This document shows, piece after piece, positions 56,958 through 61,183 of a stretch of DNA of 64,000 bases; within the stretch, counting starts at the first letter, position 1; each line of letters opens with the position of its first letter. The stretch comes from Obrimoposthia wandeli (Eukaryota). Where the stretch lies: NCBI GenBank assembly GCA_977020255.1, contig CDROCS010003264.1:62001-126000 (forward strand). Direction: 5' to 3'. The translations under genes and the position numbers were made by a program. The notes beneath the pieces are model-generated. The model had not been told where the DNA came from. It worked only from the letters and a program-made list of their open reading frames with translations, and searched no databases.

Positions 56958-59900
56958 ATGGCTCAACCAGGAGCTCAAGCAGATATTAATGCAGGAAATA
57001 ATGTAGGTGACATGAATGCCGAGCAGTTGGCACAAGCTTTAAATGCGACGTTGAGACCCAATTTTTCAGGATCATTGCAGATTACAAAGTTTAAAGGAGA
57101 TGAGGAAAGTATTTGTGACTTCCTCGCAGAATATTCGAGTTGTGCAGATGTTCAAGGATGGAACGATAAAGAAAAATGTGTCAGAGTACAGGCACATTTA
57201 ACCGGATTAGCACTCGAAGTGTATAAACATTTGACAGAAGCAGAACGTTTAGACTGGCCAACGTTGGAAAATGCTTTTATTGGAAAATTGGTATTAGGAG
57301 ATTTAGCCAAAGTAAATAAGCGACTCATGAGAGAACGGAAACAGAAACATGATGAAGGCGTGAATGAATACGCGTATGTTTTGAGAACCTTGGCCGCAAG
57401 AGCGTACCCAAGAAGAATAATGAGAAATCAGGACGGTATTCCTGTACCTCAAGAAGCACAAGCAGCGGAAAATGAACGGAACCAAAATGAAATGGCAGAG
57501 GTTTTGTTAGATATATTTAGAGGAGGATTGAAAAAGGATATTAAAGTGTTATTAGCAGTATCGGATACAAATGATTTTGATAACGCCGTGCGAAAGGCGA
57601 GAGAGATTGAGAAAATATAAAGAATAATGCAGCATTGGCAATCTACGCAATGACTGCAGGTGACGACGATAAGACAAAGGTCTTCGTGAATAAAACAGAA
57701 CCGAGTAATTTTCAGAATCGAAATTATGGACAAAATAAGTTTGAAAAAGTAGATGAATCCAGTAACGGAAATAGAGATAATTTCCGAAGTAGGAATCGAG
57801 ATGATTCGAGAGGTAGAAATAATAGTGAGTCTTGGAACAGGAATCGAGATGATTCAAGAGGTAGAAATAATAATGATTCGTGGAATAGAAATAGAGATGA
57901 TTCCAGGAATAGATTTAATAGAGATAATTCAGGAAATCGCCAACCTTGGAGAGGAGACGATAGGAATTATAACGCCAACAGAGGAGAGCGAAGTGACTCT
58001 CGATTTGGAAATAATACAGGAAATAGCGACGGAAGATTCAATAATCGAGGAAGCGGTTTTGAATCGAATTTCCGAAGAAATGATTTTAGAGGACGCTATG
58101 ATAATAGACAGAATAGTCGTCGGGTACAGTTCGAAGATGAACAAAATAAGATAGATATTCGAGGGAGAATAATGTGTTACACGTGTAAACAAATGGGTCA
58201 CTATTCGAGAGATTGTACGAGAAGTAAAGAGTTCGGAGATAACAGATTTGGAAATAATAATTTCGGTAATAATAATTTTGGAAATAATTATAGAGGATAT
58301 AATTCACCTCCGCCATGGAATAGAGGTGGTGGATATACTCCACAGCCATGGAGACTGAATAATCAGTATACAGATAGACAACAGTCACCAGGTAGATACA
58401 ATAACTATGCAGACAGACAGCAAGGAGCTGAGAGATACAATAATTACGTAGGACAGCAAGGAGCTGAGAGATATAATAATTCTGGTAGATATAATAATAA
58501 TAATGGCGACAAGACAAATAGTCGAGAGAGTTCGCCGAAACCGAAAGGAAATTTTAGTTATGTAAGCGATGACAGTGATAGGAATCGCGAGACCGAACTT
58601 CGACGCGAAATAGATTTTGAAGATAGTGATAGTAAATTTGAACGAATGTTGGGAATAATTAAAGATTCACCACATACAAAGATGGCAAATTCATCTACGT
58701 TGTCGAAACAAGAGAAAAGTCTACACTCGAGAGAAGAGATGAATGATTTAATGAATAGAATATTAGAAGCGTATGAGACACCAATAGAGAAAACGTGTAA
58801 CGCACAACCTATGACCGATCATGTAGAAGCAGCAAGGAATGCTACGAGTATGGAAAATGTAAAAAAGATAATTAGTGAAGCTAAGGAGACGTTAAATCAA
58901 CCGTTAGATGAAACGAGTGAAGCTCCAGAAGTTTTGGCCAAATTGCAAACAATTAAAGTGCACCGATTGGAAGAAGTGCGTGCAGAATTGGTTAAACATA
59001 GTCATGATAACTTGGTTTACAAAGAAGTACCCCGAGGACTATTGAAAGGTTATGGTCGTTACGTACAGAGATCGAACCAAAAAGGAACGATGAAAATTTC
59101 ACTTCGATTAATTTCCGGACAGATAATACATGAAAAACTTAACGTGTATCAAACAATGAAAACGATTCGGAAAAAGTTGGCTGAGAAACTTGAAATTGAT
59201 GGAATGAATATGTTGTTCCATTATAAAGGGAGATCACTAGATGATGAGGACGTACCAGTCGAGTTTGGATATCCGATAGGAAATGAATTAGAGGAAAAAA
59301 TTGATGTCATCACTGTAGGACGTCAAGAGTTAGTAGATAATGAAGGATTAACCGAGATATTGAATTCTGCGTTAGAAATGATAAAAACACCTATAGAAAT
59401 TTTAGACAGTTCAAGCGAAAGCGGAGATAATGATGTAGCTGAAGCTTGGAACAAGACATCCACACCAGAACCGTACGTAGGTGAATTACAAGACATGAAT
59501 TTAGAAAATGAGTTGACAACTCCAGTGGTCGAGGTGCCACCAGAACCAGATATAATTCCAATCAGACAAGATGAAGTCATGGATACAGCTAACCAAGTGA
59601 GACAAAACGAAACCGTAACCCAACTAGTAGGAGAAGACGAAGTCTCCGAGATTGTAGATTTGGATTCACCAATTTGGCATGCCGCATACAAAGATAGACA
59701 AGCAGAGCAAATGATGCGACAAAGTGAAGAGATTGGCCATGAAGAAGGACCAAGTCAAGAGATACAGTATAATGGTGAAACGTATGATCCAGGAGAGAAT
59801 CAAACTGAGTATCAGTATTTTCGAAGAGGACCTGGAAGACCTAGAAAAGGCGAAAGTATATTACGAAATGTTCTAACTGCACCACAAACTGATGAAGAGA

Positions 59901-61183
59901 GACATCTAAGTATTGGACAGTTAGCAGCGTCATTAGAGCAGTATAGTGCAGAGAGGAATGAAGATATCAGAGGTGATATGAATTCGGAAACTCCAAGTAG
60001 TAAAGATATACTTACGGGAATTCTCAGGCAAGTGAAGCCGAAGTTGTTTAAAATGTACAGAGATGAAACAACCGATATAACAGACAATTTGACTAAAGCA
60101 GTTAGATCACAGATGTCTGCAGTAAAGAGAATGACCGCGAATCATGTATACCATGCATCGATAGATAGATTTTATGACGGTGAAGTTTTAGCGAGACTAT
60201 GTGGAAACCAGACTACAAATAAAAAGTTAATTACAGCGATCACATATTTATGTTTCCAATTGACGGAACGAACGAGCCAACCTCACGAAGTCAAACAAGG
60301 AATAAACGAAGCGATGTATTTGATCGAGAATGTATTACAGAGACGAATTGACGAAAATGGAGGTTGGGCAAAATTAAGTGACTACGCTAAAACCATTGTG
60401 GAAATGAATGAAGACGATGACGAACAATGTCATGAGAATCGTCAAAAGGAAAATAAACAATACCGTCCGAAAGAGAGAAACAATCAACCAAATATGTCCA
60501 CAACAATGATGATGATGATGTTAGTAATGTTCATGGGAATGCAACAGGCATCAGGATTGATAGCATATGACTGTAGCATACCAAAGATGGGACAAAAGTA
60601 TTCACTGCTTGACAGCGAAGACTGTCCAGAGTCACAACCGTCAAAACTAGAAGTTCAAGGTGTTGAAAACTACTTTGTGTATCAGGATGTTGATAAAGTA
60701 CAAGTAGAAGTGAAAGAATGTTCAATACATTCAAGTTATCACGAATTCTATTGTGGTCATAGAAGTTTTATGTCAGAAATCACACCTACCACACCGTACA
60801 AGGCACATAAGGTTTTGCCGAGAGATTGCGAAGACGCATTTCGAACGGGAACAATAGAGGTAGACAAGAATTACAAACCTGATGTAAAAATTGGAGTGAG
60901 ACGATACGAAACAGTCACGAGAGTCGGACAACGATGGGCCGATGGATCTTGTGACGGAGGAACAAAAAACGTGCGTGGAACCAAAGTAACCGAGTTAGTA
61001 ATGGACGTAACTTACAAAATTGAATTAAAAACATGGACCGCCAATTTTGATAAAAAGACACAACTAATGATGAAGTATCCAGAATGTAAAATGACAGATA
61101 CATCTTGTTTTACAGGTGAATCCACAATTGTGTATCACATAAATCCGAAGCAATGCTCTTTAGTATTTTTTGAAAGAGATTAG
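56958..61183 (+). CDS. Gag-cargo polyprotein N-half (1-nt frameshift at ~57612): capsid, CCHC 58175-58216, SUMO-like 59090-59320, AT-hook 59822-59848, Bcl-2-like ~59900-60400, signal 60494-60556, Env N-terminus
   Basis: The continuous 1182-aa ORF 57635-61183 carries all of these domains in one frame. First ATG at 56958. Confidence 0.88.

Follow-up and report, generated by a model that had tools for sequence, protein, structure and literature searches.

Can one hydrophobic segment, standing between a Bcl-2-like domain and an envelope glycoprotein (Env) in the same open frame, serve as the membrane anchor of the first protein and as the signal peptide of the second? The original prediction proposed this for a stretch of DNA from Obrimoposthia wandeli, 64,000 nucleotides long (the window, with positions counted from its first letter). 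We found all the motifs on which it relied in a single open frame at 57611-61183 (1190 aa). The best explanation, which we hold to be fairly probable, is that a divergent Bcl-2 domain is followed by an inherited Env signal peptide working internally, and that the signal remnant tethers Bcl-2 to the endoplasmic reticulum (ER), where it would bind BH3 helices and favour survival.

One giant gypsy-like element is present twice in the window, in decayed copies that are 92% identical over 9.6 kb. The copies and their main parts outside the Bcl-2 to Env junction of copy A are as follows.

~53590 to beyond the window end, plus strand: copy A, a decayed Burro-like element
57192..58219, plus strand: Gag capsid region with one CCHC knuckle (58175-58219); Retrotrans_gag E 0.017, zf-CCHC E 6.4e-6
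59087..59320, plus strand: weak ubiquitin-like domain upstream of Bcl-2; Pfam ubiquitin E 0.15, under the cut-off
59831..59848, plus strand: a motif that we take to be AT-hook-like, in 3/11 Bcl-2-bearing and 3/11 Bcl-2-less proteins
60557..62192, plus strand: Env ectodomain, a Monjiviricetes/chuvirus-type fusion glycoprotein; PF24664 E 6.9e-24 and 9.8e-55
62719-62988, plus strand: aspartic protease downstream of Env; Pfam E 1.6e-6
63301-63468, plus strand: BIR domain downstream of Env; Pfam E 1.1e-9
21600..45215, minus strand: copy B, a decayed Burro-like element of ~23.6 kb, ends approximate
37320..37881, minus strand: Bcl-2 domain, linker and predicted signal peptide (37320-37382) of copy B, with a frame break within the fold

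Across 17 ORFs, the Pfam order is Gag, CCHC knuckle, weak ubiquitin-like domain, weak Bcl-2, Monjiviricetes-type fusion glycoprotein, protease, BIR, RING, second protease, reverse transcriptase (RT), RNase H, integrase (IN) and two DSP phosphatase stretches. Copy B carries Gag, the ubiquitin-like domain, Bcl-2, Env with one C-terminal transmembrane (TM) segment, protease (PR), two BIR domains adjoining a RING, PR, RT, RNase H, IN, two DSP phosphatase domains and accessory ORFs. Of the inhibitor of apoptosis (IAP) that had been proposed for the element, the BIR domain is confirmed by the Pfam match in copy A. Both copies are now fragmented, with a frame break between the Gag capsid region and the CCHC knuckle in copy A and its Env ectodomain broken into pieces; intact Gag/Env/Pol fusions are present in relatives. 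We found no tRNA genes in the window. The ubiquitin-like domain reached Pfam E-values of 0.027 in copy B and 0.031 in relative P0004, both likewise under the cut-off, its dN/dS is 0.11, and a ubiquitin-like domain occupies the same position in Burro (PMC6431247).

Burro/GYPSM1 are giant gypsy-like elements of planarians, whose published layout includes a Ubi2/SUMO-like domain, BCL-2, an env in frame between BCL2 and PR, and a BIR (PMC6431247). The window element has the same order, Gag-ubiquitin-like-BCL2-env-PR...RT-RH-IN in one frame plus BIR. Common to both are one polyprotein with Gag, CCHC, ubiquitin/SUMO-like and BCL2-like domains, an in-frame env related to mononegavirus fusion glycoproteins, PR, BIR, RT, RNase H and IN, as well as AT-rich host DNA and a similar coding length, ~4,600 codons as compared to 4,873-5,140 aa in Burro (PMC6431247). 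The window element differs in having one CCHC rather than two or three, and in its length of ~23.6 kb in copy B as compared to >30 kb with LTRs in Burro (PMC6431247); it also has two proteases and two DSP domains. A dUTPase-like domain between PR and RT, MATH, ankyrin and SMC gave no Pfam match in the ORFs scanned, while the published calls of these motifs in Burro used HHpred and the motifs differ between species (PMC6431247). Because copy B is ~23.6 kb long, we file the element, by comparison with the published description, as Burro-like and not as one of the named Burro families.

The junction in copy A, all on the plus strand, contains the following features.

59912-59944: IGQLAASLEQY, previously called BH3-like; not BH3 but a helix that precedes the Bcl-2 fold
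59996..60406: domain with a predicted Bcl-2 fold (helices 1 to 7/8), part of the Gag-Env-Pol polyprotein and in frame with it
59999..60049: helix 1, the BH4 position (DSSP helix 44-60)
60068..60133: helix 2, the true BH3-position helix, with no Gly-Asp core
60191..60253: BH1-equivalent, with TNKK (60215-60226) where Bcl-xL has NWGR
60203-60226: GNQTTNKK, the motif quoted earlier at the BH1 position
60332..60373: BH2-equivalent, ending in GGW, its first Trp replaced by Arg
60356-60367: NGGW, the BH2-like motif quoted earlier
60368..60493: hydrophilic stretch of 42 residues between the BH2 Trp and the signal segment, at first acidic and then basic
60494..60556: predicted internal Env signal peptide, hydrophobic core at 60503-60541, predicted cleavage between 60556 and 60557
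60494: MSTTM, at the start of the signal segment
60548-60556: ASG, the residues before the predicted cleavage
60566-60574: YDC, which holds a conserved Cys

On the predicted model and the family profile, the Bcl-2 domain is real but divergent. In the modelled fragment, the predicted fold covers residues 43-179 and forms a bundle of helices with the hydrophobic helix 5 at its centre; when structures were searched with it, 33 Bcl-2-fold chains ranked first among 48,161, and the best Foldseek match was KsBcl-2 (E 5.4e-3), so the check by structure prediction and Foldseek that had been suggested came out in favour of a Bcl-2-like domain. The family profile matched Bcl-xL at E 3.5e-5 with homology over BH1-BH2, and the best 60 of 124 rows all belong to the Bcl-2 family; the profile scored 64 bits as compared to a maximum of 6.3 in 500 shuffles, a partly circular comparison that carries little weight. 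Against Pfam Bcl-2 (PF00452; curated cut-off 31.4 bits), the window protein alone reached E 0.12 and 13.3 bits, and 5/26 relatives matched at E 7.7e-5 to 0.012 with at most 23.6 bits, also under the cut-off. The fold predicted from the single sequence was uninformative (pLDDT 40.8). Neither the domain (longer proteins) nor the alignment (63-434 aa) retrieved anything in word-indexed searches for homologs, the ESM Atlas gave unrelated bacterial clusters only (<=0.84), and phmmer against the PDB with the window domain, P0026 and P0039 gave no Bcl-2 match. Computation thus shows Bcl-2 homology at the family level, the open frame, the domain order, a conserved signal-peptide pattern (below) and purifying selection, with a dN/dS of 0.11 for the Bcl-2 fold between copies A and B, while the fold itself, the cleavage site and the topology are predictions.

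The domain resembles Bcl-2 proteins of the Bcl-xL type in its fold, the GGW of BH2, the basic residue at the BH1 Arg and a hydrophobic segment similarly far past BH2, whereas it differs in identity (10-19%), in the replaced NWGR, the absent BH3 core, a shorter segment followed by a predicted cleavage site and no basic tail, and in being part of a polyprotein. With viral Bcl-2s (KsBcl-2, A179L, DPV022, ORFV125 and GIV66) it shares a divergent fold and an altered BH1, but those proteins are encoded by separate genes of dsDNA viruses and carry anchors of their own.

BH3 belongs in helix 2 and is defined by a Gly-Asp core, which is absent from helix 2 in 6/6 rows covering it (the window protein and five relatives). 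The segment IGQLAASLEQY, in which a BH3-like motif had been seen, takes up residues 15-25 of the modelled fragment, within a helix of low confidence (pLDDT 56-58), and was rejected as BH3, being outside the fold and upstream of helix 1. Most structural alignments begin at residue 42-48, one of the 33 top structural matches extends into the region, and the region is not common to the relatives. Its changes between the copies are silent only (0 replacements and 3 silent changes over 32 codons), which would count against dismissing it altogether.

The positions proposed for BH1 and BH2 proved right. When P0003 and P0030 were pairwise-aligned to Bcl-xL and the result was transferred via the relatives' alignment, NWGR fell on TNKK, with the N-cap residue and the basic residue kept and Trp and Gly lost in 9/9 rows; the column of the NWGR Arg is Lys or Arg in all nine rows covering it. 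BH2 keeps its GGW in line with the relatives, where it is nearly canonical: the first column is Trp or Tyr in 9/10 relatives, Gly is found in 11/11 rows and the last Trp in 10/11. Among rows with a full BH2, the first Trp is lost only in the window element, P0068 excepted. The NWGR Arg forms the characteristic salt bridge with the Asp of BH3, poxviral Bcl-2s in which the motif reads SPGR or NDNR still form this bridge and bind, and several functional viral Bcl-2s are without NWGR (PMC8310162). Since Lys or Arg is kept throughout at the BH3-contacting column, a survival activity is plausible. We regard it as rather unlikely that the fold serves the control of innate signalling or autophagy, as poxviral A46/A52/B14 do, or that it is a decaying passenger.

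What, then, is the hydrophobic segment? The Met-rich stretch is the sole part of the 1190-aa ORF with a Kyte-Doolittle (KD) 19-mer of at least 1.4 (1.45; the next best is 0.80), in agreement with its description as the only hydrophobic stretch. The linker before it had been described as short and charged; at 42 residues from the BH2 Trp to the Met it is not short, and in the 11 Bcl-2-bearing proteins it measures 24-56 residues with a top KD 11-mer of 1.33. As for the (ATG)n microsatellite that had been noticed here, five perfect units are present at 60506-60520, unchanged in copy B and beyond chance (1/2000 codon shuffles reach them), but they are dispensable, with Met absent from 8/20 related internal h-regions. 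We rejected a microsatellite origin of the segment, and its Met richness is incidental.

We collected 106 matches, of which 89 align to the conserved Cys of YDC; after six shorter ones were dropped, 83 matches with at least 17 residues up to the Cys made, with the window protein, a set of 84. A KD 11-mer of at least 1.8 lies just upstream in 78/84 of these proteins, and a small residue occupies -1, six places before the Cys, in 69/84 (82%). At -3, eight places before the Cys, a small residue is found in 69%, as compared to 30% at -2 and a background of 27%. In the window element this (-3,-1) pattern falls on A-S-G, with Ala at -3 and Gly at -1, and the segment has the n, h and c regions of a cleavable signal peptide. 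Cleavage at ASG|L, the signal-peptidase-type site named in the original prediction, is thus strongly predicted on the conserved pattern. The small -1 residue is present in 13/18 stand-alone glycoproteins (580-800 residues), which have the segment at their N-terminus, in 9/11 Bcl-2-bearing proteins and in 11/11 relatives with a long upstream part and no Bcl-2, eight of which have a protease or RT downstream in the same frame. The Pfam Monjiviricetes_fusion match begins at ORF residue 965, within the hydrophobic segment. Between the copies the segment has 0 replacements and 2 silent changes, so its protein is identical, while 287/304 residues are identical over the compared part. Because the pattern is kept in stand-alone glycoproteins and in Bcl-2-less relatives, the segment is, judging from these alignments, the signal peptide that Env inherited by descent.

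The segment nevertheless stands where a Bcl-2 tail anchor would, as had been proposed: in a weak alignment of P0030 to full-length Bcl-xL (E 0.061), the signal peptide of P0030 falls on the tail anchor, and no second hydrophobic stretch after BH2 was found in 11/11 Bcl-2-bearing proteins. The idea of a tail anchor doubling as the Env signal therefore holds as to the Env signal and its position, but not in the sense of a Bcl-2 anchor reused; the dual use would thus follow from the insertion site of Bcl-2 and would not explain how the segment arose. As a candidate tail anchor it is a single hydrophobic segment, C-terminal only once cleaved, with weak hydrophobicity (KD 19-mer 1.45) and an apolar core of ~12 residues. 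Targeting of Bcl-xL to mitochondria calls for two or more basic residues on each side of the TM (PMC2172731). The segment has three before and none after, and two after are found in 1/11 Bcl-2-bearing proteins; we rejected mitochondrial targeting for lack of basic residues after the segment. Cleavage should therefore leave Bcl-2 tethered to the ER, not to mitochondria.

Downstream, one strong hydrophobic segment follows 523-549 residues after the conserved Cys in 11/11 relatives long enough, and copy B has this C-terminal Env segment too (KD 2.32). With a signal leading in and a TM leading out, the predicted topology has Gag and Bcl-2 cytosolic, Env lumenal, and PR, BIR, RING and Pol cytosolic. 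We propose that Gag, the ubiquitin-like domain and Bcl-2 are made in the cytosol, in keeping with no earlier hydrophobic segment. The Met-rich stretch would then insert in the ER with its C-terminus lumenal, and signal peptidase would cut at ASG|L and free the Env N-terminus, a step strongly predicted from conservation. On hydropathy, the single C-terminal TM of Env would return PR, BIR, RING and Pol to the cytosol. Because of the cut at ASG|L, the upstream product would keep the signal remnant and be ER-tethered, the remnant standing at the place of Bcl-2's lost helix 9. The Bcl-2 domain would most likely bind BH3 helices of host death proteins via its divergent groove, favouring survival of element-expressing cells; we infer ER tethering, BH3 binding and the effect on cell death alike.

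Flavivirus anchor C and HCV core/E1 are similar in that an internal signal for a downstream glycoprotein tethers the upstream protein, but they have no homology to the window element, and a second cut usually removes their anchor (PMC7601889): in flaviviruses NS2B/NS3 cleaves C on the anchor's cytosolic side, and HCV core is cleaved by signal peptide peptidase (SPP). The flavivirus analogy stands for an internal signal that leaves the upstream protein membrane-bound, but gives little support to a lasting anchor. Given the short core, the missing basic tail and the loss of those anchors, the ER tether of Bcl-2 is perhaps just transient. After signal peptidase, SPP or the element's own protease might cut off the remnant, leaving mature Bcl-2 in soluble form and the segment with a role for Env alone, a possibility that we place somewhat short of even. 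It would agree with the fate of flavivirus C and HCV core, with an apolar core whose median run is 12 and a c-region with polar and Gly residues, with two proteases in the polyprotein and with the variable linker length (24-56 residues). However, the linker showed no conserved cleavage motif, part of the C protein stays full-length and anchored and has a function in Zika particles (PMC7601889), and Bcl-2 lies directly before the signal in 11/11 proteins that have it. At the opposite end, the strong form of the original prediction, in which a selected Bcl-2 tail anchor, stable at apoptosis-controlling membranes including mitochondria, is also the Env signal, appears quite unlikely. The P0030 alignment and the lone hydrophobic stretch suit it, and Bcl-2 itself is found on several membranes including the ER (PMC2172731), but the same segment occurs in glycoproteins without Bcl-2, the c-region has none of the basic residues needed on each side, and a signal that translocates Env has to be in the ER.

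Two further readings concern Env. It is distinctly improbable that the signal stays uncleaved as a signal-anchor, with Env held at both ends and Bcl-2 as a leader in the cytosol that links Gag and Env where the membrane buds: for some gB-type Envs, an ectodomain between two TM domains is predicted (PMC13524379) and flaviviruses use delayed signal cleavage (PMC7601889), but the small -3/-1 pattern is equally kept in internal (9/11 and 11/11) and stand-alone (13/18) segments, and the core is too short for a typical signal-anchor. About as improbable, in our view, is a spliced or subgenomic RNA that begins at the MSTT Met and yields Env with an N-terminal signal never joined to Bcl-2. The 21 residues from this Met do make a complete conventional signal peptide, but a Met close to where the hydrophobic run begins is found in 7/11 and 6/11 internal cases as compared to 18/18 stand-alone ones (a rough count), and purifying selection acts on the frame that crosses the junction. 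We rejected a splice acceptor immediately ahead of the MSTT Met, as there is no YAG between 60338 and the Met, and pyrimidine tracts further up are weak.

The domain set and order are known, and Bcl-2 adjoining env, as well as BIR, is already published for Burro (PMC6431247); the same review had already suggested two anti-apoptotic arms and listed the BCL2 motif with a call for experimental confirmation. The anchor reading is apparently unpublished. Section 7 of the Burro review mentions no signal peptide, anchor or BH motifs (PMC6431247), and a term search of a review of viral Bcl-2s gave no mention of retrotransposons (PMC11209288). GAG-ENV-POL errantiviruses of Platyhelminthes, Nematoda and Bryozoa, with an HSV/gB-type Env, have Env between gag and pol, its ectodomain flanked by a signal peptide and a TM or by two TMs (PMC13524379); in the main text of that paper the words 'bcl' and 'burro' are absent. 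In a search that mostly excluded subscription journals, the 2019 review PMC6431247 was the only Burro literature on Bcl-2, BIR and env domains, and passages of PMC8532177 and PMC11410931 mention Burro expression and size only. The literature searched gave no experimental test of the Burro BCL2 motif, and no paper that treats retrotransposon, Bcl-2, tail anchor, signal peptide and envelope together.

Viral Bcl-2 proteins have been studied almost only in large DNA viruses. The domain boundaries, a likely BH3-contacting residue, a predicted cleavage site and a consistent topology make it feasible to test the isolated domain for cell-death manipulation. If the signal remnant is a lasting anchor, one segment would serve two proteins and the control of apoptosis would be coupled to the making of Env, whereas its removal would reduce the layout to ordinary polyprotein processing. 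A larger scenario, unlikely as a whole, is that a reverse-transcribing element took a host Bcl-2 gene, lost its tail anchor and gained the Env signal as replacement, so that each Env made leaves one ER-anchored, BH3-binding Bcl-2 and, with cytosolic BIR/RING, the polyprotein blocks death up- and downstream of caspase activation. If this were true, the death block would be in fixed proportion to fusogen synthesis.

As to the source of the domain, we propose as the best explanation that Bcl-2 is host-derived and came to lie between Gag and Env in a Burro-like gypsy element. In a quick Env tree of 41 rows, from which six Bcl-2-bearing fragments were omitted as too short, all Bcl-2-bearing rows fall among the in-frame relatives; the tree does not fix the number of Bcl-2 gains, and it hints at a loss of Bcl-2 in P0005-P0007.

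Among the protein relatives, P0005, which lacks the Bcl-2 domain, has a BH2-like remnant directly upstream of the signal peptide, identified by eye with no profile score. The rest of the domain is absent, so the remnant suggests that Bcl-2 was deleted while the signal was retained. In another relative, P0019, mitochondrial ribosomal protein L47 is fused to the Env signal and the Env N-terminus; this is probably a chimeric gene model.

Some of the relatives share an N-x-S/T triplet with copy A, the plus-strand copy of the Burro-like element:

60491-60499, plus strand: N-x-S/T triplet directly before the hydrophobic core of the signal.

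Of the 22 internal signals, 9 have the triplet at this place, as compared to 2.9 expected (3 of 2000 shuffles; the count is post hoc and the rows are related). It may be a helix cap, a protease site or a sequon.

The minus-strand copy B carries several further domains:

33080-35455, minus strand: aspartic protease, BIR, BIR, RING, aspartic protease (Pfam).
27414-31049, minus strand: integrase, then two dual-specificity phosphatase stretches, in frame (Pfam DSPc, E 2.6e-39).
24048-27263, minus strand: accessory ORFs downstream of pol (ORF calls, Pfam, hydropathy).

BIR-BIR-RING is bracketed by one aspartic protease domain on each side, an arrangement that looks as if the whole IAP module were cut out as a unit; proteases are also duplicated in relatives P0005-P0007, P0009 and P0046. 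The phosphatase stretches are absent from the motif list in the review section on planarian Burro elements (PMC6431247). After pol, a small accessory ORF encodes a RING (Pfam, E 2.7e-8), and the 592-aa and 233-aa ORFs, which had no family match, both carry strong hydrophobic segments.

Between copy A (57611-62200) and copy B, substitutions show purifying selection, and all 20 of 20 indels break the frame, reflecting either decay after insertion or long-read assembly error. Sequence comparison also revealed four LTR-like starts:

45215-44145 and 22903-21600, minus strand: LTR-like starts of copy B.
53590-54400, plus strand: LTR-like start of copy A.

These have about 200 bp in common, at an identity of only 70-88%, and their tandem arrays differ. 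Since two such starts follow one another at the 5' end of copy B, and its 3' end matches either of them poorly, nested or recombined LTRs are suggested.
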